Below, one piece after another: positions 1 through 42,070 of a stretch of 42,070 bases of DNA; position 1 is the stretch's first letter, and the number at the start of each line of letters is the position of its first letter. The notes beneath the pieces are model-generated. The model ran no database searches and was not told where the DNA came from. It saw nothing but the letters and a program-made list of their open reading frames with translations. The position numbers were made by a program, and so were the translations under genes. This stretch comes from a virus (Duplodnaviria; Caudoviricetes), in IMG/VR virus record IMGVR_UViG_3300045580_000043, positions 1 through 42,070 of that record, one strand, 5' to 3'.

Positions 1-126
1 GGACTTGGCCTCGGCCTTGCGAACCGCAGCGGCCTCGATGGCGTCACGTCCGAGCCGCAGCATCTCGGCCACCCCGATCAGGCCGAGGGCCTGAGCCACC
101 GATGCCAGTGCGTGAGTCTGGCCGAG
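1..126. repeat. Terminal overlap, identical to 41930-42055 (circular assembly overlap)
   Basis: Base-by-base identity of 1-126 with 41930-42055; a reading frame runs through it. Confidence 0.95.
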
Positions 127-657
127 CGCATCGGCCTTCCAGACCTTGCCGATGGCCTCGGCGGCCTTGCGGATGGCCTCGGTCTCGCGGTCGACGTGAG
201 CCGATCCGCCCGCCCGCGCGGCCTTGACGGCCTTCACGTCATCCACGCGGCCACCCGCGGCCTTGACTTCCGAGAGGAAGGCCGAGAGGTCCTCGGCATC
301 ATCCTCGCCGAACGACTCGCCGCGGCCGAGGGCCTCCACCGAGCGCAGGATGACGGTATCACCGATCCCCTTGCACGCCTCGGGGCTCACGGTCTTGGCC
401 GTACCAATCTTGACGGCATTCGTGCAGTGCGTCGGCGAGACCTCGAAGCCCATCTCAGCCGCCAGACGAGGCCCAAAGACCTTGAACGGAAGGCCCGCGC
501 GGGTGTGCGCCTCGGTCTTGGCGAGATTGAAGAGGGCCACCGAGAGGTTGTCGCGGGCCTTGCCGAATGCGGTCGCGGCGGTCTTGACGGCCTCGGCAAT
601 CTTGCGCTCGGCGGGCGAGAGGGCGGCGACGAGGGCGGCGGTCTTGGTTTCGGACAT
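1..657 (-). CDS. 5' part of a 264-aa junction-spanning early protein, putative HTH DNA-binding protein (continues at 41929-41792)
   Basis: ATG at 657 with upstream GAAAGGAAAG; open frame MSETKTAALVAALSPAERK...; in frame with ORF 41792..42028; HTH-like segment RLAAEMGFEVSPTHCTNAVKIG; missed by the ORF track. Confidence 0.85.
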   Translation of the reverse strand, partial: MSETKTAALVAALSPAERKIAEAVKTAATAFGKARDNLSVALFNLAKTEAHTRAGLPFKVFGPRLAAEMGFEVSPTHCTNAVKIGTAKTVSPEACKGIGDTVILRSVEALGRGESFGEDDAEDLSAFLSEVKAAGGRVDDVKAVKAARAGGSAHVDRETEAIRKAAEAIGKVWKADALGQTHALASVAQALGLIGVAEMLRLGRDAIEAAAVRKAEAKS

Positions 658-725: not shown

Positions 726-753
726 AGATTAGCAGCGGATCCGAGAGGGTCAA
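726..753 (-). promoter_or_regulatory. sigma70-type early promoter TTGACC-N16-TAATCT
   Basis: Consensus-like hexamers upstream of the junction gene; same spacing as five other early promoters. Confidence 0.7.
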
Positions 754-830: not shown

Positions 831-845
831 GTCCAACAATTGGAC
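831..845. repeat. 15-bp palindrome copy GTCCAACAATTGGAC
   Basis: Exact copy upstream of the junction-gene promoter. Confidence 0.95.
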
Positions 846-884: not shown

Positions 885-899
885 GTCCAACAATTGGAC
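885..899. repeat. 15-bp palindrome copy GTCCAACAATTGGAC
   Basis: Exact copy, 54 bp from the previous one. Confidence 0.95.
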
Positions 900-28980: not shown

Positions 28981-29159
28981 GTGTCCACCATGTCCTCTAG
29001 GCTTTCGCCTCTGTCCTGAAACCGTTCACGCAGCTTCCGCATGGCCACTAGGCCGATCTGCTTCACCGTGTTCGGATGCAGGTTGTCGTTCTCTCTGTGG
29101 TTGTAGATGACCGTCACTTCCTCCCAAGTCAGGAGGTAACGGTCTTGTTCAGTGCTCAC
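28977..29159 (-). CDS. Small sigma70 region-4-like HTH protein
   Basis: LTWEEV...PNTVKQIGLVAMRKLR resembles TLEEV...RERIRQIEAKALRKLR. Confidence 0.6.
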   Translation of the reverse strand: MSTEQDRYLLTWEEVTVIYNHRENDNLHPNTVKQIGLVAMRKLRERFQDRGESLEDMVDT

Positions 29160-29487: not shown

Positions 29488-29707
29488 GGAGGATGCTCCT
29501 GACCGCCTCAAGGCCGTTCATGAGATCCCTGAACGGAACCTCGATCTTCGTGATCTCCTTGCCGTCCGACACCAGATCGTGATGCTCGATCTTCAGCGTG
29601 ACGGTGTCACTGTGCTCCGACCAAGCCTCAAGGACAAGGCTGGTCCTGCTTGACTTGCGGATCTCCTCGCAAGTGATCCTCACATCGATTGTCGTTTCGC
29701 CTTCCAT
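29480..29707 (-). CDS. Hypothetical protein
   Basis: 75-aa ORF, GGTGGA upstream, in the tightly packed operon. Confidence 0.55.
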   Translation of the reverse strand: MEGETTIDVRITCEEIRKSSRTSLVLEAWSEHSDTVTLKIEHHDLVSDGKEITKIEVPFRDLMNGLEAVRSILRA

Positions 29708-29873
29708 TGGCTTCCACCTTTTCTGCGTGGATGGCCGAGAGGGTGATGCCCATCCTGACCACGTCCACGATGCTGTAGTGTGTTCCGAACAGGACGCTGA
29801 ACTTACCCGCTAGGTAGGTCAGGGCCGTGTGCGACTCCAAGTCGATCCTGACCGTCTTTGTCCGGCGTCTCAC
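29628..29873 (-). CDS. Putative ribbon-helix-helix DNA-binding protein
   Basis: TKTVRID strand, helix, then YSIVDVVRMGI; GTGA coupling and GAGGA RBS. Confidence 0.5.
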   Translation of the reverse strand: MRRRTKTVRIDLESHTALTYLAGKFSVLFGTHYSIVDVVRMGITLSAIHAEKVEANGRRNDNRCEDHLRGDPQVKQDQPCP

Positions 29874-30046: not shown

Positions 30047-31635
30047 TGAAAGTCCTCGTTCACTGGAAGTTCCTCGACCTCGGCCAAGCGACCACTGTCC
30101 CTGTACCACCGAAGTCCTCCTGCAAGTCCAGTCTCACCCGTGTATCGGTTCTTGAGAACGCGCAGCGTTAGGAGGTTCGCGTTCTCCTCGTCCTGCTGGT
30201 TGCGCTCAAGCCCGATCACGGCGTCTGCAAGCTGCGCGATGCTATGCGATCCGCGCAATTGTGCAAGGCTGGTCTGGGCTCCGTTCTCATGGCCACGGTC
30301 GCCGTCTGGGCGGCGGAGGTGGCTCACGACGAACAAGGCGATCTGCGTCTCCTCGACTAGGGATCGCAGAGATGTCATGGCGTTGTCGATGAGTCGGCGC
30401 TCGTCTCCGTCACCGAGTCCGGACACCACGATGCTGAGGTGGTCGAGGAAGACGTACTCGCAGCCCAGCGCCTTGGTCATGTATCGCACCCTCGCCAGCA
30501 GGTTCTCGGGATCGACCGAGCCGAAGTGGTCGAACATCACGACCTTCGCAACGGTGGCCTCGAAAGCCTCGCGCTTCTGCTGCTCGGAGATCCCCCGTTC
30601 CTCCCACCAGTACGGAGGGCAGTTGAGGTGGATGCCCATGAGGTTGCGCCCAGTGCGCTTCACCGACTCCTCAAGCATCAGCAGCCCGACCTTCTTGCCA
30701 GCGCGGATCAGGTGGCAGATGAGCTCACGGCACACGCTGCTCTTGCCGATGCCTGTGCCGGAAGTGAGCACGATCAGTTCTCCCCTGCGGATGCCGAGAA
30801 GCTTGTCGTTCACCTTGGTCCACGGGTACTCCACGCTCTCGGTGTTGTCCTCGGTGATGACCGCATCCCAGAGGTCGCTGCCCATGACAACGCCGTCAGG
30901 ACGGTACACCTTGGCCCCGTAGACGGCGTCCACGACCTTGGCTCCAGCCCCAGCCTGAAGAGCCTCGTTGGCATCCTTGAAGCCCTGTACGCGGCCAATG
31001 CGGGCCTTGCCGGGGGTAAGGAGAAGAGCGCACTCGCGGGCAGCCTTGCGTCCGGCGTCATCGTCATCGAACAGGATGTTGACGGTCTCGAACGTCTCAA
31101 GCCACTCAAGGCTCTTCTGGAAAGCCTTCACGGCTCCCGCAGCCCCTGTGGGAATGCTCACGACTGGCCACTTGTTGCCGAAGAGCTGGGACACGGTCAG
31201 GGCATCGATCTCGCCCTCGGTGACCGTGACCATCTTGCCTCCGTCGCGCCACAGGTGCTGGCCGTACAGGCCGACATCCTTGAAGTCCCCGAGCGTCACG
31301 AAGTCCTTGGAGGGGAAGCGCAGCTTCTGAGCCACGATTGTCCCGTCCTTGTAGTACTGGGCGACCTGAACGGACTGGCCGTTGAACTCTCCGACACCGT
31401 AGCCCCAGATGCGGCAGGTGTCCTCGCTGATCCCTCGCTTCTTCAGCGGGGAGAATGTGACATCGATCATGTTCGCCTTTCTCGGGGTCAGTCCAATTGT
31501 TGGACTGCCGTCGCCTCGTTCTCGGTAGTTGCATCCGAAGCACCAAGCGTGGCCGTCCGTGTACCGAGCAAGGTTGTCCCTGCTACCGCACTTCGGGCAC
31601 TCCTCGTGCCTTACGAATTCTGACTGGTTCGACAT
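30043..31635 (-). CDS. gp4: DNA primase-helicase
   Basis: CPKCGSRD...CFGC zinc finger, TEGEID and FDDDDAG TOPRIM, SGTGIGKS Walker A, LDHL, LRGS. Confidence 0.97.
   Translation of the reverse strand: MSNQSEFVRHEECPKCGSRDNLARYTDGHAWCFGCNYRERGDGSPTIGLTPRKANMIDVTFSPLKKRGISEDTCRIWGYGVGEFNGQSVQVAQYYKDGTIVAQKLRFPSKDFVTLGDFKDVGLYGQHLWRDGGKMVTVTEGEIDALTVSQLFGNKWPVVSIPTGAAGAVKAFQKSLEWLETFETVNILFDDDDAGRKAARECALLLTPGKARIGRVQGFKDANEALQAGAGAKVVDAVYGAKVYRPDGVVMGSDLWDAVITEDNTESVEYPWTKVNDKLLGIRRGELIVLTSGTGIGKSSVCRELICHLIRAGKKVGLLMLEESVKRTGRNLMGIHLNCPPYWWEERGISEQQKREAFEATVAKVVMFDHFGSVDPENLLARVRYMTKALGCEYVFLDHLSIVVSGLGDGDERRLIDNAMTSLRSLVEETQIALFVVSHLRRPDGDRGHENGAQTSLAQLRGSHSIAQLADAVIGLERNQQDEENANLLTLRVLKNRYTGETGLAGGLRWYRDSGRLAEVEELPVNEDFQ
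31491..31505. repeat. 15-bp palindrome copy GTCCAATTGTTGGAC inside gp4
   Basis: Exact copy encoding SPTIG, 20 nt before internal ATG 31470. Confidence 0.95.
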
Positions 31636-32002
31636 TGTGTTCCCTTATCCAGACTTCGATTCGCGGCTGTTCCGCGTACTTCTTCTGCGCCGTGATCTTG
31701 CAGATCTGCACATCGTCCCGCCAAGCCCACTCGTTCAGCACATCGAGAACACCCTTCTGGTAGTTGTCGATGTCGCCTATGGGATACGGGTTGCTTGGGT
31801 TCTTCGGTGTGCGGCAGAAGAAGATCAGCTCGACTTCAAGCGGACAAGACAAAGGGCAGCCCTTGGGTCGGCTCATCTCACCAAGGGCTGCCCACGCGAG
31901 TTTCCTGAAGTTGTCGTAACGCTTCTGGTAGTAGACCCTGCCGTTCCTCGCGACACGAGGGCGGGAGGCTGCGACGGGTTCTACCCAGAGCGTGAAGTGC
32001 AT
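31583..32002 (-). CDS. rusA: RusA-family Holliday junction resolvase
   Basis: PVAASRPRV, GDIDNYQKGVLDVLN...WRDDVQI; TGATG coupling to SSB. Confidence 0.88.
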   Translation of the reverse strand: MHFTLWVEPVAASRPRVARNGRVYYQKRYDNFRKLAWAALGEMSRPKGCPLSCPLEVELIFFCRTPKNPSNPYPIGDIDNYQKGVLDVLNEWAWRDDVQICKITAQKKYAEQPRIEVWIREHNVEPVRIRKARGVPEVR

Positions 32003-32598
32003 CAGAAGTCGTTGTCCGAGTCGTTGTCGCTGGACACCACGGTCTCCTGCTCCTTGACGAAGCCGTCCGTGGCCTTGAAGCCGAAGGCGTCGAAGTTGTC
32101 GCCAGCGATGTACTCGCGCAGCTCCAGCACCTGAACAGCGCGGAGGCGCAGGGAGATGCCGTGGCCGACCATGGCAGTGAAGTACGGGGCGCAGTCGAAG
32201 GCGACCTTGATGGTGCTGCCCGAACCGACATTCAGGTTCGAGACCGGGTTGCCCTTGGCGTCGAACAGCGCGGGCTTCTGGTCCCACTGCTTCTCGCCCG
32301 TGCCACCCTTGGCCTTGAGCTTGAACTTGAAGCGGATCTTGCCGTCCTCGGTCTGCTTCCACGGCATATCGGCCCGCTTGAGAGCCTTCTTGCCCTTCGC
32401 CTTGCACTCGTTGGCGTAGTCGGCCTCGGCGATCTTGGTCAGCTTCGCCACGAGGTCATCGGCGTCCTTGCCAGTCAGGTCGAGATCGACCGAGTACACG
32501 CCATCGGCGTTGAACTTCGTGTCGGGCTTCTCGATCTTGGGGTAGACGGCGATGCCAGCGGGGCTCGTGATGCGGACGATGTTCTGCTTGCCACTCAT
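32002..32598 (-). CDS. gp2.5: Single-stranded DNA-binding protein
   Basis: SPAGIAVYP...PDTKF...GSGSTIK...GISLRLRAVQVLEL; acidic tail ending in Phe. Confidence 0.93.
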   Translation of the reverse strand: MSGKQNIVRITSPAGIAVYPKIEKPDTKFNADGVYSVDLDLTGKDADDLVAKLTKIAEADYANECKAKGKKALKRADMPWKQTEDGKIRFKFKLKAKGGTGEKQWDQKPALFDAKGNPVSNLNVGSGSTIKVAFDCAPYFTAMVGHGISLRLRAVQVLELREYIAGDNFDAFGFKATDGFVKEQETVVSSDNDSDNDF

Positions 32599-32612
32599 TG
32601 TGTGTTCTCCTA

Positions 32613-32627
32613 GTCCAACAATTGGAC
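32613..32627. repeat. 15-bp palindrome copy
   Basis: Exact copy between the RNAP stop and the SSB RBS. Confidence 0.95.
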
Positions 32628-32633
32628 TGGTTC

Positions 32634-35030
32634 TCAGTTGAAGTAGTACTCACTACTCAACACCTCAGTCACATCCAGAGATCCGTACTCTGGAACTTCA
32701 GGCAATACTACCATAGAAGGCAGCATTGTCAATGCCTGTAGCCTGAACTCGGCCAGCAGGTCTCGGCTGAAGATGTCAACGGTCGCCTTGCGGACGCATT
32801 TGGCGACGATTGGGGCGTCTGCCGCTAGGCAAAGGAGCTGGTCGTGGACCTCTCCGAAGTCCTGCACTCCGTTGTCAAGAGCGAGGTTGGCGGTGTGGCC
32901 GAGAAGACCACCGATGCCGTCGAAGCTGTGGACGATGTTGGGAGCCCCGCCGTTGGTGGCCTTGCGCTTCGACTGCTTGCCGTTCTCCTCGCGGATCGTC
33001 AGCACACGCGCCTTGGCACCGACACGGGTGGAGACCATGACCGAGTCGTAGTTCTCGTAGCGCATCCTGACCGGGAGACCAAGTGGAGTCATCCATCGTG
33101 GAGTGATGTCGTGGTCTATGAGGATGCCCATGACATCGCGGATGAACTTCATGCCGCGTGTGGCCGAGCCAACGACATCGTCCATCGAGTTCCAGATGAT
33201 CTTCCCTAGGAAAGCGGCTGGCTTGTAGACCTCAAGTCCGAACGGGTTGCCCTTGTGCCTGATCTTCTCGTCCAGCCACTCGCGGGTGTAGTTGATGCAG
33301 GAATGCTGGGTCAATCCGTAGGGCAGCGTCATGGTCTGCCTCTTGGTCGTGCTCCGGTCGATCCCTAGGGAGAGCAGTCCCTTGGCGTAGGGAGAGTCGC
33401 TGACAAGCAGCTTGGCGATGACGCGGTCGGCCACTGCCTTGTACGGATCGGCTGGGGACTTGCCCGGAGTGACGTTGGTCGCGGCGGCGGCGATTGGATC
33501 ACGCAGCAGCATCGAGTAGATCTGCAATCCCTGAGTGGTCGCGTCCATGCCGATTGGCAGACGGGAGTTGTACCCGAAGCCCTTGGCCCAGAAGTTGGAG
33601 AGCTCCTTACAGGCCGCGTAGAACGCGAACGGATCGTCTGCCTTCATCCAGTCGCCGTGGCCGTATGGATCGGTTCCACTGCACTTGATGAGATCTGTAT
33701 TCGATTCGATCCAATGCAGACGCTCTTCCTTCGACTTCTTGTCTAGACCCCACTTGTTCGCGGTGTGGAGCATCAGCGCCTGAAGCTGGGCTTCGGTCTT
33801 GATCTGCTTTCCACGGGCGAAGCGGAGCAGGGACTTGGCGACACTCGTCCCCTGTGGATTGAGGTAGAGGGGCAGGTAGTAGCCGCGTCCTCGGAAGTCG
33901 AGCTGCATCGGGAACCAGATGCGCTCGTAGGTCTTCATCTTGTCCGCGACCATCAGGGTCTTCAGCAGCTGGAGCCTCTGGCTCTCCAGAGACTCGTTGT
34001 GGAAGTAGACCTTGGCTGCCGCCTTTCGCCACTGTCGGCGGGACTCGATGTTGGTCTCGATGTCATCAGGCTTGGCCGGGACGATCTCGTCAAGCGCACT
34101 GGGGAGACCGTCGATCTTGGCGGATTCCTTCCAGCAGTGCCTGATTAGGTCATAGACCTCCTGATCCACCTGCCACGGCGTGGACTGGATCATGTTGGTG
34201 GCGCTGTAGACCTTGGAGAGATCGCAGCCAGAAAGCTCGGTCTGGTACGCCTTGTTCCTCGACTTGATTAGGGGTCGGGGTTTCCAGTCCAGCTGGCGGT
34301 ATCCACCGATCCAAGGATTGGACCATGGGAGAGGACGCTCCGCCGTGGGCAGGAAGAACGGAGTGAGTTCCTCATGGTACTCATGGCACTTCCTGACCCA
34401 TTCGCTGATTTCGCGGCTGGGGGCTATCGCGCAATACCGCCGACCACGGGCATTCAACTTGGTCAGGATCTGGATGATGCCCGTCCGTGTCGCCATCATG
34501 TCCGTGAGCAGCACACCAATGGCCAGTGCGTCTGCCTTGGCCCACCGCTGGGTGACGAGATCGACGGCCTTGGCGGCATCGCGGATGAACCTGCGCTTGA
34601 GTCCCGCTCCAACGGACTTGAAGGAGACCTGCTGCATCCTGCGGAAGAAGGCAGGAGACTCCTCGGCCAGTTTCTCCAGCAGGATCTCGTCCTCGATTGT
34701 GCGCCCCACGGCGATGCACAGGGAGGTCATCATTCGCTCCGTGCTCAAGCCGTCTATGACGGCCTTACAGGCGATCACGGCGATCTTCTCCGCTGGGAGC
34801 ATCTCCATGAACGGAAGGCAGCGGTGGTGCTTGCCGGGGCTCTTGCGGGCCTTCAGGACCCAGTCGTAGATGCCCTTGGTCATCTCCTCGGTGCACTTGT
34901 TCAGCAACTGCCGACCGGGGATGGTGTTGGACTCGGAGGTGATCTCCGTGGCCTTCTGCTTCCGTGAGCGGTAGCGGGCCTTGCCCAGTTCACGCATCTC
35001 GTTGTGGAGGTGGTCCTGCTTGGATTCCAT
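32634..35030 (-). CDS. gp1: Single-subunit T7-like RNA polymerase
   Basis: DFRGRGY, LNPQG, MDATTQGLQ (A), RSTTKRQTMTLPYG (B), PNIVHSFD, VHD (C). Confidence 0.96.
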   Translation of the reverse strand: MESKQDHLHNEMRELGKARYRSRKQKATEITSESNTIPGRQLLNKCTEEMTKGIYDWVLKARKSPGKHHRCLPFMEMLPAEKIAVIACKAVIDGLSTERMMTSLCIAVGRTIEDEILLEKLAEESPAFFRRMQQVSFKSVGAGLKRRFIRDAAKAVDLVTQRWAKADALAIGVLLTDMMATRTGIIQILTKLNARGRRYCAIAPSREISEWVRKCHEYHEELTPFFLPTAERPLPWSNPWIGGYRQLDWKPRPLIKSRNKAYQTELSGCDLSKVYSATNMIQSTPWQVDQEVYDLIRHCWKESAKIDGLPSALDEIVPAKPDDIETNIESRRQWRKAAAKVYFHNESLESQRLQLLKTLMVADKMKTYERIWFPMQLDFRGRGYYLPLYLNPQGTSVAKSLLRFARGKQIKTEAQLQALMLHTANKWGLDKKSKEERLHWIESNTDLIKCSGTDPYGHGDWMKADDPFAFYAACKELSNFWAKGFGYNSRLPIGMDATTQGLQIYSMLLRDPIAAAATNVTPGKSPADPYKAVADRVIAKLLVSDSPYAKGLLSLGIDRSTTKRQTMTLPYGLTQHSCINYTREWLDEKIRHKGNPFGLEVYKPAAFLGKIIWNSMDDVVGSATRGMKFIRDVMGILIDHDITPRWMTPLGLPVRMRYENYDSVMVSTRVGAKARVLTIREENGKQSKRKATNGGAPNIVHSFDGIGGLLGHTANLALDNGVQDFGEVHDQLLCLAADAPIVAKCVRKATVDIFSRDLLAEFRLQALTMLPSMVVLPEVPEYGSLDVTEVLSSEYYFN

Positions 35031-35036
35031 GGAGGG

Positions 35037-35063
35037 ATTCTAATGCCTGTCCAACAATTGGAC
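35037..35063 (-). promoter_or_regulatory. Putative leaderless RNAP promoter: TAGAAT -10 with the palindrome (35049-35063) over the spacer/-35 region
   Basis: TAGAAT-CCCTCC-ATG, no SD; exact palindrome copy 6 nt upstream of the -10. Confidence 0.6.
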
Positions 35064-35064
35064 C

Positions 35065-35105
35065 AAAAGAAAACCCCCGTGAACCGCTGGTGCGGCCCAC
35101 GGGGG
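35065..35105 (-). terminator. Intrinsic terminator upstream of RNAP
   Basis: CCCCCGTGGGCCGC-ACCA-GCGGTTCACGGGGG then TTTTCTTTT. Confidence 0.85.
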
Positions 35106-35135
35106 CGAGGAAAAGAGAACGGGGTGGAGTCTAGC

Positions 35136-35173
35136 AAGAAAAGAAGGCGATGGCCTCAAGGACCACCGCCTTC
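35136..35173 (-). terminator. Intrinsic terminator after the DUF932 gene
   Basis: GAAGGCGGTGGTC-CTTGA-GGCCATCGCCTTC then TTTTCTT. Confidence 0.8.
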
Positions 35174-35197
35174 CGAGGGGGAAAAGATGCGGGAACC

Positions 35198-35926
35198 TTA
35201 CGCCGCGACGAAGGTCTCGTCAAGCAGCTTGTCGAAGGCGATCACGCGGCGGGCGAAGTCGCCAGCCTCCATGCCCTTGGCGGTGTGCGTGTAGGCGTTG
35301 TGGATGTTCCACAGGGTGTTCTCCTTGACGCCGTAGTCGAACGAGGGCTTGTGGATCTCGTTGGCATACGCCACGGCCTTGCTCTCGGGCAGGAGACCCC
35401 TGCGGGCCACCTCCATGGCGAAGGCGTCGATCATGCGGCGGTCATCCACGACGATCTCACGGAGCGTGTCGTTGCGCCGCTGGGCCTCCAAGATGGTGTC
35501 GCCGAAGACATCGACCGACTCGGCGATCAGGCTGGGGATGCGGTCCCACACATTGAGGGTGTGACGGGTCTTCAACTTGTGGTCGGCGATGATCGCACCG
35601 TTGGAGCACACGAAGACGCGGGCACCGAACAGCAGGGTGACGCTGCGGCTCATGTCGTAGGAGTTCATCACCCCGACCATCCAGTCGAGAGCCTTGTCCT
35701 GCGGGAGACCGCCGCCGCTGACGGAGAACATCGACACGAAGCGGGGCTTCTTGCGGTGGATCTGGTGCGTGGGCTTGTCGATGTCGAACCCCTGCGAGGT
35801 GAACGCCGACATGACGTTGTGCATCAAGTGGCGGTGCGGCACGGGGGTGTACGAGGCGGTCGGGGACGGAACGGGGATGTTGTCGATGGCTGCGCTGCTG
35901 ACGTATGCGGTGTTGAGAGAGATCAT
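35198..35926 (-). CDS. DUF932-family protein
   Basis: YTPVPH, NSYDMSRS...GARVFVCSNG, TLWNIHNAYT. Confidence 0.85.
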   Translation of the reverse strand: MISLNTAYVSSAAIDNIPVPSPTASYTPVPHRHLMHNVMSAFTSQGFDIDKPTHQIHRKKPRFVSMFSVSGGGLPQDKALDWMVGVMNSYDMSRSVTLLFGARVFVCSNGAIIADHKLKTRHTLNVWDRIPSLIAESVDVFGDTILEAQRRNDTLREIVVDDRRMIDAFAMEVARRGLLPESKAVAYANEIHKPSFDYGVKENTLWNIHNAYTHTAKGMEAGDFARRVIAFDKLLDETFVAA

Positions 35927-35949
35927 GTGTCTGTTTCCTCTGAAGTTGT

Positions 35950-35964
35950 GTCCAACAATTGGAC
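35950..35964. repeat. 15-bp palindrome copy
   Basis: Exact copy between stop 35970 and start 35926. Confidence 0.95.
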
Positions 35965-35969
35965 TGGTT

Positions 35970-36182
35970 TCACTTGTTCTTGCGCTGCTTGCGCTTGAGA
36001 ACCTCTGCGATGTAGGCCCGCTCGTTGTCGGTCAGGTGCATGTCGTTCGTATGCGCCTGATCGAGAACCCTGATGGCCCACAGGAAAGCCGTGTCGATGT
36101 CCTTGGCTACGAATGCCTTGCAGGAGTGGATGAACGAGGTGCTGACTTTGTCGCGGTCGGTGAGTTTGAGTCTCTTTGCCAT
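35970..36182 (-). CDS. Small basic hypothetical protein, probably leaderless
   Basis: ATG follows the -10 hexamer after 6 nt; no SD. Confidence 0.7.
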   Translation of the reverse strand: MAKRLKLTDRDKVSTSFIHSCKAFVAKDIDTAFLWAIRVLDQAHTNDMHLTDNERAYIAEVLKRKQRKNK

Positions 36183-36188
36183 GTATAT

Positions 36189-36216
36189 ACTTTACCCGAA
36201 ATTTGGCAAAAGTCAA
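36189..36216 (-). promoter_or_regulatory. Early promoter TTGACT-N16-TAAAGT
   Basis: Hexamers seen directly; shares CGGGTAAAGTAT with the 36846 promoter. Confidence 0.8.
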
Positions 36217-36260
36217 GTCTGCGCGTTGCTACGGGTATGCGCGCCCCACCCTCGAAAGGA

Positions 36261-36773
36261 TCAGGCGGTGGTTGCAGACTTGCTGCGCTCGGCGATGACA
36301 TCGAGCAGCGCCGTGGCCAACTTCTTGTAGTCGATCTTGTCCGCGATGGACTCAAGGTCGATGTGCTGCTCCACGATGGTGTCCGCGAGGTTGTCGATGT
36401 CGATCTCGTTGGCGATGTCGCTGACGGACAACTCGGAGGCGATGTCACTGAGCGAGATCTCCGCAGCGATGTCACTGGTGTTGACCTCGGCGGCGAGGCG
36501 TCCGATGCGGATGTACGAGGCAACATCCGAGACATCGATCTCCTCCGCCAAGTCGGAGTAACTGATGTTGTCGCGGACGAGGTCAGCGATGTCGCCACGG
36601 ACGATGTCGCTCACGACACCCTCGAACTCCCTCGACTGCGTGTGATCCTTGACGATGTCGAGGATGCGGTCGTTGCCGTACAGGGTCGGAGCCATCTCCT
36701 CCTTCACGATGGACTTGATGAAGGTGCGGAGTGGGGACGGGTCGATGCTGATGCTGATGTTCTCGGTGCTCAT
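36261..36773 (-). CDS. Acidic protein with 9-aa tandem repeats
   Basis: ISYSDLAEE/IDVSDVASY/VNTSDIAAE/ISLSDIASE/LSVSDIANE/IDIDNLADT/IDLESIADK. Confidence 0.8.
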   Translation of the reverse strand: MSTENISISIDPSPLRTFIKSIVKEEMAPTLYGNDRILDIVKDHTQSREFEGVVSDIVRGDIADLVRDNISYSDLAEEIDVSDVASYIRIGRLAAEVNTSDIAAEISLSDIASELSVSDIANEIDIDNLADTIVEQHIDLESIADKIDYKKLATALLDVIAERSKSATTA

Positions 36774-36790
36774 TGTTCTCTGATCCTTCT

Positions 36791-36805
36791 GTCCAACAAT
36801 TGGAC
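36791..36805. repeat. 15-bp palindrome copy
   Basis: Exact copy 17 nt before ATG 36773. Confidence 0.95.
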
Positions 36806-36845
36806 TGGTTCTCTGCGGCTCAAGACCTCCTTGAGCCATGTACAT

Positions 36846-36873
36846 ACTTTACCCGAAGATCGGGGAAAGTCAA
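36846..36873 (-). promoter_or_regulatory. Early promoter TTGACT-N16-TAAAGT followed by a 5' stem-loop
   Basis: Hexamers plus GGCTCAAG-GAGGT-CTTGAGCC hairpin at about +1. Confidence 0.8.
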
Positions 36874-37136
36874 GTAGTCTTCGTCTCGGTGCGTCGAAAT
36901 TGATCGACGGCGTTCCAGTACGCGCTGGCCTTGCCTGACGGGATCTTGGCGGTGATCAGGGCCGAAGCCTCGCGGATGACCGCATTGGCTCCGATGATCG
37001 CCTCGTTCCGTTCGGAGCGCAGCCGTTCGATCTCGTCGGCAGCGTCTCGCAGATCACGCGACCAAACTCCCATAGCGGGAGCAATACAGCACTTGGAAAG
37101 AAGGACGCGAAGCCTCGTCACGATGTCGTCACTCAC
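36870..37136 (-). CDS. Hypothetical protein (AADEIERLR motif)
   Basis: DIVTRLR...AADEIERLR; GGAGG RBS, GTGA coupling. Confidence 0.7.
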   Translation of the reverse strand: MSDDIVTRLRVLLSKCCIAPAMGVWSRDLRDAADEIERLRSERNEAIIGANAVIREASALITAKIPSGKASAYWNAVDQFRRTETKTT

Positions 37137-37498
37137 TTGTCGTCCTCCTTGAAGCAGTCCCAGTTACGTTCTTTCATGTACCTCATGGCGACCTCATGAA
37201 AGCGACCGCTTTCCATTCCTTCCGTGTTGTCTGCTCCATCGACAATGGCTGCATACTCACAACACGAACGCCGCGCTTCGTCGCGCTCGGCGGTGAGGCG
37301 GGCGACCTCGCGCTGCGCGTCCAACGCCTCCGCGCAGAACTGCGTTGATCGCTGGTTGCGGGCACAACCCGTGTTCCGACGCAACCGCTCGATCTCGTCG
37401 GCGGCTTCGCACAACAGCCGACCAAGCACCGCTGACTTTGTTTCGCCCATTCGCTCTGAATACAGGCGCAGCCGATCCATGATGTCAGGCCCGGTCAT
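37133..37498 (-). CDS. Hypothetical protein (AADEIERLR motif)
   Basis: DIMDRLR...AADEIERLR...ERDEARR; ATGA coupling. Confidence 0.7.
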   Translation of the reverse strand: MTGPDIMDRLRLYSERMGETKSAVLGRLLCEAADEIERLRRNTGCARNQRSTQFCAEALDAQREVARLTAERDEARRSCCEYAAIVDGADNTEGMESGRFHEVAMRYMKERNWDCFKEDDK

Positions 37499-37746
37499 GA
37501 CTTGCTCTCCTTCTTCTTGCGCTTGGGCTTGAGGCTCAAGGCACGGGTGAACAGGCGGTCGATCATGTCGAGGGAACGGCTCTCGACCTCCCTGCGGTTG
37601 TCTCCCTCGTCGGAGTCGAGAGAGAAGTGGTACGAATCCTCCAAGGCGGTCTCGATGGCGGTGATGAACGCCTGAAGCTCCCGCTTGGTGTAGCACGATG
37701 CGACTGCCTTGGCGGCGAGTCCGAACTTGGTCGGCTTCTCAGCCAT
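37495..37746 (-). CDS. Hypothetical protein
   Basis: GGAGGT RBS before MAEKPTKF; basic C-terminus. Confidence 0.7.
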   Translation of the reverse strand: MAEKPTKFGLAAKAVASCYTKRELQAFITAIETALEDSYHFSLDSDEGDNRREVESRSLDMIDRLFTRALSLKPKRKKKESKS

Positions 37747-38257
37747 CGCACACCTCCGCATCGGCGATCTTGGTCACCATGATCTCGCACAGCATGTTGT
37801 CGTGGTCACGGGCTCGGGACTGGTGGTACAGGCAAGCAGCACCCTCCTCGGTCAACGCCATGACGTAGATCCTCTCGGTCTCGGAGGTGTCGCTGTTGAT
37901 CGCCCACACCGCGTACAGGTTGAGGCGGTTGGCCTCGGGATCGACAGGAACCGCCGAAAGATCCTCCGCATAGTCTGGAAGGTAGGTCTTCGGGGCGCAT
38001 CCCTTGCACGGAGGGTCCCCCATGCAGCCACAGGCGCTCTTGGCGATGTTGTCGGGGAACTCCGTGCCGTGGCGCGAGGCGGGGATCTCGACTCCTTCGG
38101 GGTACTTGACGATCTCGTAGGAGTCACAGCCGCACTCCTCTGCGTGGTCGAGAAGGTCGAAGATCTGATCCTTGTCGCCCTCGACGCGGATGAGGAAGGT
38201 CTTGGCGGGATCGGTGTCGATCTTCGGCTCGATGTTGATGTTGATGGGCTTGCTCAT
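37739..38257 (-). CDS. Hypothetical protein (acidic, Cys cluster)
   Basis: AAAGGA RBS before MSKPIN; CGCMGDPPCKGC. Confidence 0.7.
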   Translation of the reverse strand: MSKPININIEPKIDTDPAKTFLIRVEGDKDQIFDLLDHAEECGCDSYEIVKYPEGVEIPASRHGTEFPDNIAKSACGCMGDPPCKGCAPKTYLPDYAEDLSAVPVDPEANRLNLYAVWAINSDTSETERIYVMALTEEGAACLYHQSRARDHDNMLCEIMVTKIADAEVCDG

Positions 38258-38278
38258 GGTTCTCTGTTCCTTTCTCTG

Positions 38279-38293
38279 GTCCAACAATTGGAC
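38279..38293. repeat. 15-bp palindrome copy
   Basis: Exact copy abutting stop 38294 and 21 nt before the next ATG. Confidence 0.95.
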
Positions 38294-38815
38294 TCACTTG
38301 GCGAACTTGCCCTCGGACACGACCTGCTTGATCATCAGGTAGATGCCGTGGACGGAATCCTCGGTCGCGCCGACGAAGTGACGGTGCCAGATGCCCAGCC
38401 AGTTGCGGGACATCTGCTCCATGTTGAGGGAGCCGTCGATGTTGCGGACGGCCATGATCTCGACCTCGCCGCCCACAGCGCCGATGGGGATCCAGTCGCT
38501 CGTACCGTCCCTCTGCATGAGCAGATCGACGGACTCGCACACGAACACCTCGGGGCAGTCGGGGTCGGCGGTGAAGGTGAAGGACGCCATGAAGTCATCA
38601 CCGTGGCCCGCCTCAAGAGCGGGGGCGATGAACTTGGGACGGAGGTCGCCATCGCTGCCGACCGCGACATCCTCGACCTCGTCAAGGATCACGGGGTAGC
38701 CATCGGCGATCATGTCCTTGACGATCTCGTTGGCGCACTCCTCGGGGTTGCCGTTGGCGACATCGAACGAGATGGTGAGGAAGGCACGGTGGGTGGTGTA
38801 GGGCTTCTTTGGCAT
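38294..38815 (-). CDS. Hypothetical protein
   Basis: AAGGA RBS before MPKKPY; in-frame upstream ATG at 38875 near +1. Confidence 0.72.
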   Translation of the reverse strand: MPKKPYTTHRAFLTISFDVANGNPEECANEIVKDMIADGYPVILDEVEDVAVGSDGDLRPKFIAPALEAGHGDDFMASFTFTADPDCPEVFVCESVDLLMQRDGTSDWIPIGAVGGEVEIMAVRNIDGSLNMEQMSRNWLGIWHRHFVGATEDSVHGIYLMIKQVVSEGKFAK

Positions 38816-38832
38816 TGGTCTCTTGTCCTTCT

Positions 38833-38847
38833 GTCCAATTGTTGGAC
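38833..38847. repeat. 15-bp palindrome copy (TTG orientation)
   Basis: Exact copy 17 nt before ATG 38815. Confidence 0.95.
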
Positions 38848-38881
38848 TGGGTGAATCGGAGCAGAGTTGCTCCATGGATGT

Positions 38882-38909
38882 AATGTACCCGAAGATCGGA
38901 GTAAGTCAA
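38882..38909 (-). promoter_or_regulatory. Early promoter TTGACT-N16-TACATT followed by a stem-loop
   Basis: Hexamers; GGAGCA-ACTC-TGCTCC hairpin at about +1; shares CCGATCTTCGGGTA with the 36846 promoter. Confidence 0.8.
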
Positions 38910-39736
38910 GTGGTGACGATGAACGGGGAGCCCCAGTCGGAGGCACTCATGCGCTTGCCGTTGACGGTGACGGTCTTGTACCGCAGTCCGACGATGACTC
39001 CACGCGGGTCGAGGAAGCGGAGGTCATCCTTGTCGCCGTCGATGACCGTGTAGCCGCGCCAGTGGGTCGGCAGGGGCTGGCCCTTCTTGGTATCGAAGAC
39101 CACGGCGACACGACCCCGGCAGTCCGAGAGAAGCTTGGCGCAGTCATCCCAGTTGTGGCCCGAGAAGGACAAGGTCTGGTCCCAAGACGGGGTCTGCTGG
39201 TAGGCACGGTTGATCGACTTGGTGTAGTCGTAGAACCGCCAGCCGATCAAGTCGAAGTAGCCGAACAACTCGGGTGCGATGTAGTCCCACGGCAGATCGG
39301 AAGTGCCGTTGAGACGCATCACGGGCTTCGTGGACAGGTCCAGTGAAGCCTTCTGCATCTCGCACAGCAGCGACCAGAAGAAGTCGTGCGGGGTCTCGAC
39401 AAGACGCTGGGTCTTGCGGATCCGCGCTTGCTGCACCGACGAGAGAGCACCCTTGCCCGAGCAGTTGAGGCAGATGTCCGTGCAGTCCTGAGACCGCCAC
39501 AGGCACATCTCATGACCGCTGCTGTCGGCTGGGGCAAGGAACAGGCTGTAGATCCTGTACTGCGCCGTGCGGTCGGACTCCTTCGCCAACTTGGCGTTGG
39601 CCTTGGGCTGGGTCAGCACGGGGAACAGGGCTCGGCTGTTGATCGTGCCAAGCCACTTGTCGAAGGTGCGCTGGAACTCGTCACGAAGCCGCGTGAAGTT
39701 GACCGTGTTCGCCTTGTCGATTACTGGAAGGTTCAT
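38906..39736 (-). CDS. GP88-like protein with radical-SAM-like Cys motif
   Basis: NAKLAK, CLWRSQDCTDICL, RLNGTSDL, FYDYTK, VIDGDKDDLRFLD, VGLRYK. Confidence 0.75.
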   Translation of the reverse strand: MNLPVIDKANTVNFTRLRDEFQRTFDKWLGTINSRALFPVLTQPKANAKLAKESDRTAQYRIYSLFLAPADSSGHEMCLWRSQDCTDICLNCSGKGALSSVQQARIRKTQRLVETPHDFFWSLLCEMQKASLDLSTKPVMRLNGTSDLPWDYIAPELFGYFDLIGWRFYDYTKSINRAYQQTPSWDQTLSFSGHNWDDCAKLLSDCRGRVAVVFDTKKGQPLPTHWRGYTVIDGDKDDLRFLDPRGVIVGLRYKTVTVNGKRMSASDWGSPFIVTT

Positions 39737-39757
39737 GTTCTCGTTTCCTTTCGTGTT

Positions 39758-39772
39758 GTCCAATTGTTGGAC
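39758..39772. repeat. 15-bp palindrome copy (TTG orientation)
   Basis: Exact copy 21 nt before ATG 39736. Confidence 0.95.
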
Positions 39773-39805
39773 TGGCTGCACCGAGCAGGACCGTCCAACA
39801 CCCAT

Positions 39806-39833
39806 ACTGTACCACAGGAGTTAGATTTGTCAA
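39806..39833 (-). promoter_or_regulatory. Early promoter TTGACA-N16-TACAGT with extended -10 TG
   Basis: CTATTGACAAA...TGTGGTACAGT. Confidence 0.8.
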
Positions 39834-39923
39834 TAGGTTTCCGATTAGGGAGTCGGCAGTCGGGAATCGGCTATTAGGGATCTCGATTAGGGATTGGCGA
39901 TTGGGGCCCGAGGCTCAACGGCG

Positions 39924-39938
39924 GTCCAACAATTGGAC
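39924..39938. repeat. 15-bp palindrome copy
   Basis: Exact intergenic copy. Confidence 0.95.
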
Positions 39939-40017
39939 AACGTCCGCAGGGGCTGTCATAAGCTCTATCATGGAACTGTCATAAACGGCCCGCAACAGCG
40001 GCCCGATGACGATTCCA

Positions 40018-40032
40018 GTCCAATTGTTGGAC
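40018..40032. repeat. 15-bp palindrome copy (TTG orientation)
   Basis: Exact copy just downstream of a terminator T-tract. Confidence 0.95.
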
Positions 40033-40034
40033 AC

Positions 40035-40071
40035 AAAAAAACCCCTGCCGCACCCGAAGGCACGGCAGGGG
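40035..40071 (-). terminator. Intrinsic terminator
   Basis: CCCCTGCCGTGCC-TTCG-GGTGCGGCAGGGG then T7. Confidence 0.9.
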
Positions 40072-40094
40072 CAGAGGGGAAAAGATGTCGTGTT

Positions 40095-40109
40095 GTCCAA
40101 TTGTTGGAC
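40095..40109. repeat. 15-bp palindrome copy (TTG orientation)
   Basis: Exact copy overlapping the TAG stop by one base. Confidence 0.95.
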
Positions 40110-40747
40110 TAGATGGCCTCGGCGTAGACCAGAGCGGTGTCGAGAAGAGTCTCGGTCCGCTGCTGCATGTTGCCGCCCATGACGCTCGTCATGACGGGAC
40201 GGTAACCCTTGGCCCTCTCGGGCCCATAGCGGTGCTCCAACATATCGCGGAGCACGTGCTCGACCTCGCGGATGGCGAACAGGAACTGCTGAAGACGCAG
40301 GGCAGCGTACTCGCCAGTGCCGTCCTCGGTGCACTTCTCGCCGTCCATGCGGCTGGCGAAGCCATCGTGGACGAACTGGATTGCAGACAGGAACTGACGG
40401 AACTTGTTGACGAGGCTGGGTGGGTGGAACGCCCACTCCAACACCACCCCACCGCCGCACGACCACACCACGTTGTCGTGGATCTCCCCGAGGGTCTCCT
40501 CGGAGAGGTCGTGGGCGTTGCTGGTGGTCTTCTCTGCCTTCAGCGCCCGCTCAGTCATCAATGCGCCAACGGCGCACTTGCAGACCTTGCCGTCAGCCCT
40601 CGTCACGATGTTGCAGCAAGCGGAGAGGCTGGGGTTCTCCAGACCGAACTCCTGCTGCGCCTCGAAGTGGTCACGGACCGATTCGAGGAGGGACACGATT
40701 CCAGAGATGCGACCGATGCTGTACTTGTTTGCGAGAATGGTTTCCAT
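40109..40747 (-). CDS. Hypothetical early protein
   Basis: AAGGAAAGAGAACA before METILANK; DGKVCKCAVGALM...IQFVHD. Confidence 0.75.
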   Translation of the reverse strand: METILANKYSIGRISGIVSLLESVRDHFEAQQEFGLENPSLSACCNIVTRADGKVCKCAVGALMTERALKAEKTTSNAHDLSEETLGEIHDNVVWSCGGGVVLEWAFHPPSLVNKFRQFLSAIQFVHDGFASRMDGEKCTEDGTGEYAALRLQQFLFAIREVEHVLRDMLEHRYGPERAKGYRPVMTSVMGGNMQQRTETLLDTALVYAEAI

Positions 40748-40815
40748 TGTTCTCTTTCCTTCTTTCTGAAGTGAGCGTGTTGGAGAAGACTGGCTGTATG
40801 CGCTCCCCACAGCCA

Positions 40816-40830
40816 GTCCAATTGTTGGAC
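40816..40830. repeat. 15-bp palindrome copy (TTG orientation)
   Basis: Exact copy abutting stop 40831. Confidence 0.95.
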
Positions 40831-41193
40831 TCAGTCGAGTTCGACGGGGAGGTCGCTCATGAAGTCGGGGATGTCGTTCTCCTCGACCTCCTTCAAGGTG
40901 CGCATGTGATGGGCGCTGACGCGGGTCAAGCGGTACTCGCAGCCAAGCCACTGCATCACGAACCAGCCGCCCTTGCCGCAGACCTTGAGGGTGTTGCTCC
41001 CCTGACGGAAGTCGATGCCGAGCATGAAGGTGGTGGCCAGAGCCACAGCGACATCCTCGGTGATGCGGGGGCTGCGGTCGCTGATGGCCGCATGGTGGGC
41101 GAGAGTCGCTGCGGCGACGATGGCGGGCACTGGGATCTCCTCGCCCTTGATGTTGATGATCGAATCCCAGCACAGGTGGTTGTTGGTCTTCAT
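40831..41193 (-). CDS. Hypothetical early protein
   Basis: GAGGAAAG RBS before MKTNNHL; acidic tail. Confidence 0.75.
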   Translation of the reverse strand: MKTNNHLCWDSIINIKGEEIPVPAIVAAATLAHHAAISDRSPRITEDVAVALATTFMLGIDFRQGSNTLKVCGKGGWFVMQWLGCEYRLTRVSAHHMRTLKEVEENDIPDFMSDLPVELD

Positions 41194-41213
41194 GTTCTCT
41201 GCTTTCCTCTCTG

Positions 41214-41228
41214 GTCCAATTGTTGGAC
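41214..41228. repeat. 15-bp palindrome copy (TTG orientation)
   Basis: Exact copy 20 nt before ATG 41193. Confidence 0.95.
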
Positions 41229-41269
41229 TCGGTTCTCTGTGGCCCAAGACCTCCTTGAGCCATGTAGGC

Positions 41270-41297
41270 ATATTACCACAGCATCCAACTTTGTCAA
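41270..41297 (-). promoter_or_regulatory. Early promoter TTGACA-N16-TAATAT with extended -10 TG and 5' stem-loop
   Basis: CTATTGACAAA...TGTGGTAATAT; leader nearly identical to that of the 36846 promoter. Confidence 0.85.
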
Positions 41298-41446
41298 TAG
41301 ATTCCTGTAGTTACCTTTAGTTGTATCTATGGATACTCTGGGGTTGAACCTAGGTATCTTTCTTCTAGTCTTTCTTCTTACCTAGTAAGAGAGAAGTAAG
41401 AAGTACTAGGGTAGACAATGGGTAATCCTATGGGAACGGCATAGCC

Positions 41447-41461
41447 GTCCAACAATTGGAC
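41447..41461. repeat. 15-bp palindrome copy
   Basis: Exact intergenic copy. Confidence 0.95.
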
Positions 41462-41621
41462 TAGGGATGTCTTCTTCTAGGTCTCCCGATTAGGGAGTTT
41501 GTTGGGGCTGTCATTCCAGAACGGCACCAGACGCCCTAGGGATCCATTGCAGCCTTCCCCGTCACCGACTAGGGTCGGAGGTCTCCCCGATTGGGGATCG
41601 TCTCCACGGGGCTCCTAGGCG

Positions 41622-41636
41622 GTCCAATCGTTGGAC
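41622..41636. repeat. 15-bp palindrome variant GTCCAATCGTTGGAC
   Basis: Arms intact, spacer TCG. Confidence 0.9.
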
Positions 41637-41725
41637 CAGAATCAGCCCTCCCAGTCAGCGATTGGCGATTGGCAGCTGAACTATCACTCCACTATCATGG
41701 GGCTATCCCGCCGCCGAGCGCGGGC

Positions 41726-41766
41726 AAACAAAAAACCCCCGACCCCGCGCAAGCGGGGCCGAGGGT
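41726..41766 (-). terminator. Intrinsic terminator after the junction gene
   Basis: CCCTCGGCCCCGC-TTGC-GCGGGGTCGGGGG then TTTTTTGTTT. Confidence 0.88.
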
Positions 41767-41776
41767 CGTTCGGTCG

Positions 41777-41791
41777 GTCCAATTGTTGGAC
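41777..41791. repeat. 15-bp palindrome copy (TTG orientation)
   Basis: Exact copy abutting stop 41792. Confidence 0.95.
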
Positions 41792-42055
41792 TCACTTACC
41801 CTTCGGGGCGGCCTTGCCCTTCGGGGCGGACTTGGCCTCGGCCTTGGCATCGGCGGCGGCCATCCGAGCGGCGGCGGCGGCCACATCCTCGGCGCTCGGA
41901 CGGGCGGCCTTGCGCACGGCCTTCGGCTCGGACTTGGCCTCGGCCTTGCGAACCGCAGCGGCCTCGATGGCGTCACGTCCGAGCCGCAGCATCTCGGCCA
42001 CCCCGATCAGGCCGAGGGCCTGAGCCACCGATGCCAGTGCGTGAGTCTGGCCGAG
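41792..42055 (-). CDS. 3' part of the junction-spanning protein (Ala/Lys-rich tail)
   Basis: ...AADAKAEAKSAPKGKAAPKGK-stop; in frame with 657-1. Confidence 0.85.
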   Translation of the reverse strand, partial: LGQTHALASVAQALGLIGVAEMLRLGRDAIEAAAVRKAEAKSEPKAVRKAARPSAEDVAAAAARMAAADAKAEAKSAPKGKAAPKGK

Positions 42056-42070
42056 GCCATCGGCAAGGTC

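Follow-up and report, generated by a model that had tools for sequence, protein, structure and literature searches.

The window analysed here, the whole 42,070-nucleotide stretch of IMG/VR virus record IMGVR_UViG_3300045580_000043 (Duplodnaviria; Caudoviricetes), is a whole circular genome, with its first 126 nt recurring at 41930, and its early genes are punctuated by copies of a 15-bp palindrome, GTCCAA-N3-TTGGAC. The last 141 nt (41930–42070), in which this 126-nt repeat is followed by a short copy of 142–162 folded back on itself, are an assembly overlap with an artefactual tip and not a biological repeat. Every gene lies on the minus strand, and Pfam and PHROGs scans identified a T7-type RNA polymerase, ssb, RusA, a primase/helicase, DNA polymerase A and an exonuclease among the encoded proteins. 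The gene that concerns us most, gp1, encodes 264 amino acids and runs from 657 to 41792 across the circular junction. The sequencing runs containing the DNA of the window were freshwater or aquatic metagenomes, with no RNA run among those listed.

A scan of the window yielded 18 exact matches to the palindrome, whereas none occurred in any of 100 shuffled windows (mean 0.00, maximum 0). All 18 are confined to one continuous early arm of 11.3 kb (27% of the genome), which runs from 899 to 1 and from 41929 to 31491 across the circular junction; because the window is circular, this arm opens with the copies at 885 and 831. The three spacer bases on the plus strand were CAA in nine copies, TTG in eight and TCG in one (41622). 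As transcribed, nine sites carry TTG and the other nine CAA or CGA, and this 9:9 distribution indicates that the element is orientation-free. Nine of the 18 copies are located 14–23 nt 5′ of a start codon (one of these being a putative internal start in the primase/helicase gene), six are at a stop codon or no more than 6 nt from one, and those at 35049 and 40018 come after predicted terminators. An earlier note made from the sequence alone had reported the 18 copies, the spacer counts, the absence of copies between 900 and 31490, the use of both orientations among genes on a single strand, and the positions relative to starts, stops and terminators, and all of this was reproduced. The mismatch-tolerant scan that it proposed added only two matches at two mismatches (32919 and 34309, both within the RNA polymerase gene), close to the 1.5 expected by chance. 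Near-matches with one to three mismatches numbered four in the early arm and ten in the remaining 30.6 kb; since they are no denser in the arm than elsewhere, the exact family is sharp.

The arm contains seven sigma70-like promoters, all identified as pattern matches, and terminators given below are predictions. Five of the seven promoters have a palindrome at about +28 to +72, ahead of the next ribosome-binding site. The two without a palindrome before their gene are those of gp1 and of a 70-amino-acid gene, and in both the first site comes after the stop codon. The features of the arm are as follows, with palindromes given without a strand.

885..899, palindrome, first of the arm: exact match, upstream of the gp1 promoter
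831..845, palindrome: exact match, upstream of the gp1 promoter
726..753, minus strand, sigma70-like gp1 promoter (TTGACC-16-TAATCT): pattern match, no palindrome until the gp1 stop
1..657, minus strand, gp1 residues 1–219: predicted KorB/ParB-like DNA-binding domain at about residues 31–150, then a C-terminal helical domain
41792..41929, minus strand, C-terminal end of gp1, across the circular junction
41777..41791, palindrome: exact match, directly 3′ of the gp1 stop and ahead of the terminator
41734..41767, minus strand, predicted intrinsic terminator after gp1
41622..41636, palindrome with variant central base: exact match, in non-coding DNA
41447..41461, palindrome: exact match, in non-coding DNA
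41270..41297, minus strand, sigma70-like promoter: palindrome at about +36
41214..41228, palindrome: exact match, 20 nt 5′ of a start
40816..40830, palindrome: exact match, at a stop codon
40095..40109, palindrome: overlaps a stop codon, ahead of the terminator at 40072–40041
40018..40032, palindrome: exact match, 3′ of the terminator
39924..39938, palindrome: exact match, in non-coding DNA
39806..39833, minus strand, sigma70-like promoter: palindrome at about +28
39758..39772, palindrome: 21 nt 5′ of a GP88-family gene (PF17338)
38882..38909, minus strand, sigma70-like promoter: palindrome at about +29
38833..38847, palindrome: 17 nt 5′ of a start
38279..38293, palindrome: at a stop and 21 nt 5′ of the next start
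36846..36873, minus strand, sigma70-like promoter: palindrome at about +35
36791..36805, palindrome: 17 nt 5′ of the acidic repeat protein gene
36189..36216, minus strand, sigma70-like promoter: abuts the ATG of the 70-amino-acid gene (predicted leaderless), no palindrome before the gene
35970..36182, minus strand, 70-amino-acid gene: carried by 15 records of the clade and evolving fast, with an Atlas model resembling a TPR helical hairpin
35950..35964, palindrome: between the 70-amino-acid gene and a DUF932 gene
35073..35174, minus strand, two predicted terminators that isolate the RNA polymerase gene
35049..35063, palindrome: 3′ of the terminator, ending 6 nt before the −10-like hexamer of the RNA polymerase gene
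35037..35042, minus strand, TAGAAT, conserved and separated by 6 nt from the ATG of the RNA polymerase gene: putative −10 element of a leaderless transcript
32634..35030, minus strand, T7-type RNA polymerase gene
32705..32732, minus strand, sigma70-like promoter inside the 3′ end of the RNA polymerase gene: palindrome at about +72
32613..32627, palindrome: before ssb, within a 24-nt insert absent from several relatives
31491..31505, palindrome: in the primase/helicase frame, 20 nt before the putative internal start, with in-frame swaps in relatives

At 35030–35042 and 36182–36194 the ATG lies 6–8 nt past a −10-like hexamer, an arrangement kept in relatives, and judging from this spacing the RNA polymerase and 70-amino-acid genes appear to be leaderless. 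The conserved ATG at 31470, with its purine-rich leader, suggests a second, shorter product of the primase/helicase gene; in T7, gp4B is such a shorter product.

The positions within leaders bear on one alternative, that the palindrome acts as an RNA hairpin and signals processing, stabilisation or translation. A 7-bp stem closed by a 3-nt loop can form from each copy (−6.6 kcal/mol), many copies lie just 5′ of a ribosome-binding site, and two of the palindrome types found in relatives (D and M, described below) occur in one orientation only. Processing sites likewise punctuate the early RNA of T7. Types A, F and J, however, are used in both orientations, so that the loop sequence differs on the RNA, and two sites lie upstream of the first promoter. 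Moreover, any hairpin would stabilise RNA, which leaves the sequence identity of the copies across the genome and their covariation with gp1 unexplained. We consider this reading improbable.

Loci of relatives were retrieved via the RNA polymerase, DUF932 and terminase. They carry other multi-copy palindromes, of about a dozen spellings, in the same slots; the type letters are labels coined in this analysis.

Type A (window): GTCCAA-N3-TTGGAC
Type B: GTGAAAC-N3-GTTTCAC
Type C: ATCCCA-N4-TGGGAT
Type I: ATCCCG-N4-CGGGAT
Types D/E: GTCTCA-N4-TGAGAC
Type F: GTCTAG-N3-CTAGAC
Types G, H, J, K, M and N: further types

Eight long records use a single type each, with one of nine tested types present and zero copies of the others. 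Six near-complete genomes have 8–18 sites each, extending from just before gp1 to the primase/polymerase region, with a single site located 3′ of exo; the block from portal to terminase is free of them. No such palindrome family was seen in L177 and L178, two more distant loci, and the 80 loci listed from a scan for types B, G and H contained no further member of the clade. The half-site of type B, GTGAAAC (L127, also designated G001), equals the parS half-site given in PMC7383237, with the halves in opposite order. In the same record, short imperfect repeats fill the non-coding gap between gp1 and GP88 (about 4900–5450). A further contig (L283) contains three copies of an 18-bp B/H-like palindrome at 9052, 14056 and 14636, and the part of it examined had no terminase, polymerase or gp1 match.

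B, C and one A record are 94–99% identical in their replication proteins. One swap, in front of the acidic gene, is confined to the palindrome itself: the B and C leaders are nearly identical over about 70 bases on one side of it and about 50 on the other. The slot in the primase frame holds an A, C or D palindrome in frame, or degenerate copies, across relatives. An independent public contig about 95% alike diverges from the window at palindrome sites, and another has a type E copy in the 41777 slot. The 24-nt allele before ssb is empty in some records and filled in others. In 12 of 21 records, several of them redundant, a gap of 5–6 nt separates the end of the site from this same TAGAAT hexamer ahead of the RNA polymerase gene. 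Mixed genomes also occur: L129 combines A and H, L126 combines A and an I-like copy, and L165 and L167 have, before the RNA polymerase gene, a type E copy beside the −10-like hexamer in tandem with an old type A copy, which is likely a snapshot of site replacement.

The same comparison addresses the second idea of the earlier note, that the palindromes are crossover sites at which a site-specific recombinase shuffles single-gene cassettes. The spacer is near-invariant in type A, gene replacements in a related contig end at palindrome sites, and L164 has an additional 86-amino-acid gene between two direct site-plus-ribosome-binding-site units, the one gene gain or loss that was mapped. The window, however, retains the leader of the first unit through its ATG, so that the junction between L164 and the window lies downstream of the palindrome, 3′ of the ribosome-binding site and outside the spacer. 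No tyrosine (PF00589) or serine (PF00239) recombinase was matched in the window or in four near-complete relatives, in scans whose controls were positive in 14 and 12 of 14 genomes. The early segments of 24 of 24 relatives, most of them partial, showed no inversion despite adjacent sites in opposite orientation, and all translated matches were on the same strand. Site-to-site inversions or circles were absent among the 15 listed of 22 joints, an absence that assembled contigs cannot establish. The spacer, whose near-invariance the note took to fit crossover, flips alone: it is CAA in four records and TTG in two at the ssb slot, and TTG in five, CAA in two and TAA in one at the RNA polymerase slot, with the genes unmoved, and its central base varies among relatives. 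Recombination at sites in the primase frame and beside essential genes would also be harmful. Site-specific crossover is accordingly the least credible of the readings considered here, and what the alignments contain appears instead to be ordinary homologous shuffling between repeated leader units as a side effect, similar to that of PeSL cassettes, which may be one route by which new sites spread.

The protein most closely associated with the palindromes is gp1. No name was obtained for it from Pfam, PHROGs, PDB-sequence or Atlas searches, and its family comprises 50 clusters at E < 1e-10. Each of the 37 gp1 copies listed stands first in gene order, and most have the palindrome of their genome about 150–250 nt upstream and at the stop. 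Covariation was assessed in 12 close-clade records with both gp1 and a site, C and I being pooled and the rows not being independent. Identity of the gp1 N-terminal domain was 46% within palindrome types and 18% between them (permutation p 0.0002), and that of the putative recognition helix 55% and 12%, whereas the DNA of the neighbouring terminase was 85% identical within types and 84% between (p 0.27). The gp1 tree required four changes for five types (12 rows), the lowest number possible, and the terminase tree seven changes for six types (18 rows). Type A forms one clade (96/86) and C plus I another (92/89) on the gp1 tree, and both are scattered on the terminase tree. Two swap pairs illustrate this pattern. 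B and C records are 98% identical in terminase DNA and 14–16% in their gp1 domains; L186 and L187 are 97% identical over 3.3 kb up to the left end, yet have different sites and, judged by eye, a gp1 start of another clade. In these sequence comparisons, palindrome type follows gp1 and not the terminase.

Other candidate readers were rejected. The tree of the 70-amino-acid gene was unresolved, and the window copy is 72% identical to a type E copy and 47% to a type A copy; a proposed likeness of its product to the C-terminal domain of gp1 failed (hhalign probability 0.1). A small gene at 28977–29159, resembling a sigma-4-type helix-turn-helix by eye and without a significant family match, has the same sequence (100% identity) in a type B record and a type C record and so cannot set the type. 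A ribbon-helix-helix-like open reading frame at 29628–29873, also assigned by eye and without a significant family match, was not seen in the open reading frame lists of L127, L128 and L132. For the RNA polymerase, C and A records are 0.02 apart on its tree, and no site occurs at the late genes. Parsimony counts on the RNA polymerase, DUF932 and 70-amino-acid trees, each with eight changes for nine states, were uninformative.

The reader might alternatively be a host protein, with palindrome type mirroring host lineage. The retention of one palindrome family over very different gp1 lineages and the differing tail genes of some types are in line with this. Types nevertheless differ among phages that are 94–99% identical in replication and capsid proteins, type tracks gp1 and not the terminase, and replacement of a whole palindrome by an unrelated one better fits a phage-borne reader, so that a host reader seems hardly plausible.

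AlphaFold models of gp1 had a pLDDT of 87 for the whole protein and 93 for the N-terminal domain and were all-helical from residue 2. The whole N-terminal domain was aligned only by KorB, ParB, Spo0J, SopB and Raf1 chains (Z 4.6–6.6). The KorB, ParB, Spo0J and SopB matches (Z 5.0–6.6, root-mean-square deviation 3.0–3.6, 89–102 residues) were below the bar of Z 8; KorB 8qa8 aligned at Z 6.2 with a deviation of 3.2 over 97 residues, and the ParB–parS structure 6s6h also aligns. These models are suggestive of a KorB/ParB-like DNA-binding fold. DUF3102 (PF11300) was matched by none of 40 gp1 members and was sub-threshold in three of the nine most distant profile matches, and Foldseek viral matches were weak. 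The earlier note's first idea, that the palindromes are binding sites for a dimeric protein, is supported, with gp1, which covaries with type and has this predicted domain, as the candidate binder. That gp1 is the palindrome binder is, in our judgement, quite probable.

Binding need not mean repression. gp1 could bind the sites as a parS-like structural coat that compacts, positions or shields the first-injected DNA without repressing it, as would suit the modelled resemblance to the ParB fold, the Ala/Lys-rich tails of gp1, the presence of sites before the first promoter and between coding regions, and the variation between relatives in the exact slots used. The five sites outside obvious leaders keep this reading alive. 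Against it, the CTPase motif of ParB (GxxRR-type, G[EHN]RR) occurs in 0 of 85 gp1 family members, and no ParA or IncC was found among the 37 non-structural and small proteins scanned with Pfam and PHROGs, the large structural genes being outside the scan. The sites are strongly biased to the stretch from transcription start to ribosome-binding site, and a coat offers no obvious reason for type swaps. We regard the coat as unlikely, though less so than the RNA hairpin or the host reader.

The first protein of the phage itself, gp1, is likely the one for which the 18 palindromes serve as operators, and we assign a probability of roughly 0.55 to the reading that gp1 binds them and represses the early genes. 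The sites are directly observed, as are their restriction to the arm transcribed by the host, the wholesale exchange of their sequence in relatives and the covariation of type with gp1; from these we infer the following course. gp1 would be made first, from its own host-type promoter, and its dimer would bind the palindromes through a KorB/ParB-like helix-turn-helix domain. Bound gp1 would form a roadblock to host RNA polymerase at +28 to +72 of five early promoters and would mask the −10-like hexamer from which the phage RNA polymerase gene is presumably transcribed. The gp1 and 70-amino-acid genes would remain transcribable under this repression, because their first site comes after the stop codon; the 70-amino-acid protein is a possible partner of gp1. 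Repression may time or damp early expression and may also silence a phage that arrives later and shares the type. Rare palindrome types would be favoured because they escape such silencing, and this would account for the arrival of a new gp1 allele by recombination and the rewriting of the sites one by one; mixed and tandem genomes do exist.

Several observations weigh against this operator reading. For five of the 18 sites (885, 831, 41622, 41447 and 39924), which precede the first promoter or fall between coding regions, there is no evident promoter that they could block. The gp1 stop has no palindrome in type B records, the gp1 of L246 has no nearby family palindrome on either side, and G001, L128, L169 and L129 have a TAGAAT-like hexamer but no site before the RNA polymerase gene. 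The F palindrome, GTCTAG-N3-CTAGAC, is common to four or more gp1 lineages that are only distantly related, and two comparisons among the gp1 domains of type A gave just 26–32% identity. As gp1 adjoins several sites, linkage alone can yield covariation. The fold scores of gp1 are middling (Z < 8) and level with those of AAA+ lid fragments, and Foldseek of gp1 against the PDB gave no match under E 0.001. Since no integrase or resolvase was found, a stable repressed state would have no visible means of inheritance.

A bolder extension is that these integrase-less T7-like phages run an immunity-like system from a stripped-down ParB domain, with silencing of the early arm and RNA polymerase, a dormant carrier state, shutdown of same-type superinfection, and competition-driven rewriting of 8–18 operators to match a new reader; we hold this only tentatively and think it rather doubtful as a whole. 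To our knowledge, T7-like phages are textbook lytic phages without repressors. If the operator reading is true, dispersed, swappable operators give a widespread freshwater T7-like clade a self-made brake on its early genes, and immunity groups without integration become possible in T7-like phages. The clade also offers a natural set of about a dozen protein–palindrome pairs in one fold for the study of switches in DNA-binding specificity, and raises the question of how many sites, one inside a coding frame, get rewritten together.

Other features of the genome and clues to the host were as follows. The acidic protein encoded at 36261–36773, with repeated D/E-I-A motifs, occurs in most types and, judged by eye, is a possible DNA mimic or anti-restriction protein. 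In six records, 24 promoter matches had a 16-bp spacer and seven a 17-bp spacer; the 16-bp spacing may reflect the sigma factor of the host. A C5-N-G5-type hairpin is located at 1081–1095 by the putative left end, with similar hairpins in relatives and several contigs ending nearby, and is a possible packaging or terminal signal. A clade-related late-gene contig (L380; terminase 80% identical) within a proteobacterial metagenome-assembled genome ends at the same G/C hairpin; it is probably binned phage DNA and was not taken as host evidence. No relative of the RNA polymerase was found in species genomes, and the closest isolated phages are 34% identical in this protein.

No published account of such a system in T7-like phages was found in the literature searched, most subscription papers being outside its scope. 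The stoperators of Cluster A mycobacteriophages, whose genomes carry integration or partition genes, are dispersed and asymmetric, and most of them share one orientation (PMC6550527). The palindromes resemble them in being many dispersed sites whose motif covaries with a candidate repressor, here gp1, and stoperators define immunity specificities. By contrast, the present sites are near-perfect palindromes in 9:9 orientations, no PF00589 or PF00239 match and, among the proteins scanned, no parA was seen, and instead of the stoperator gradient there are discrete type swaps between near-identical genomes. In the parS and Noc–NBS systems, a ParB-family domain binds a palindrome of about 16 bp with two-fold symmetry and switches specificity (PMC7383237). 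The present system differs in having no CTPase domain and, among the proteins scanned, no ParA, as well as other site sequences and sites in early-gene leaders. PeSL cassettes of T4-type phages are units of promoter, stem-loop and Shine-Dalgarno sequence before variable early genes, with gain and loss between units (PMC2839356). The window similarly has five promoter–site–ribosome-binding-site units; between direct units, the one gain or loss mapped is that of the 86-amino-acid gene of L164. The stem-loops of PeSL, however, are G/C-rich, terminator-type and varying in position, whereas here a 15-bp stem is fixed per genome, covaries with a protein and also occurs outside leader units.

The conserved inverted repeats of phiC31, the CUP elements of IncN and plasmid establishment regulons are likewise dispersed operators before early or first-transferred genes, read by an element-encoded repressor; they involve other protein families in a temperate phage or plasmids, and we know of no wholesale operator swapping among them. 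The OB operators of KorB also occur in multiple dispersed copies. In IncP plasmid RK2, KorB represses by reading these palindromic operators with a DNA-binding domain of the ParB family, and KorB variants unable to close their clamp still repress, at nearby promoters only (PMC11790492; PDB 1r71, 8qa8). Palindromic sites are a shared feature, and KorB is the top or near-top fold match of the gp1 N-terminal domain. Unlike KorB, gp1 lacks a CTPase domain and is therefore not expected to form a sliding clamp; neither KorA nor IncC/ParA had a homolog among the proteins seen. The present system also belongs to a phage, and its relatives exchange one site sequence for another. The repression of nearby promoters by clamp-defective KorB fits a CTPase-less gp1 with sites close to each promoter. 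The palindrome system would work like KorB/OB or the stoperators but is a member of neither.

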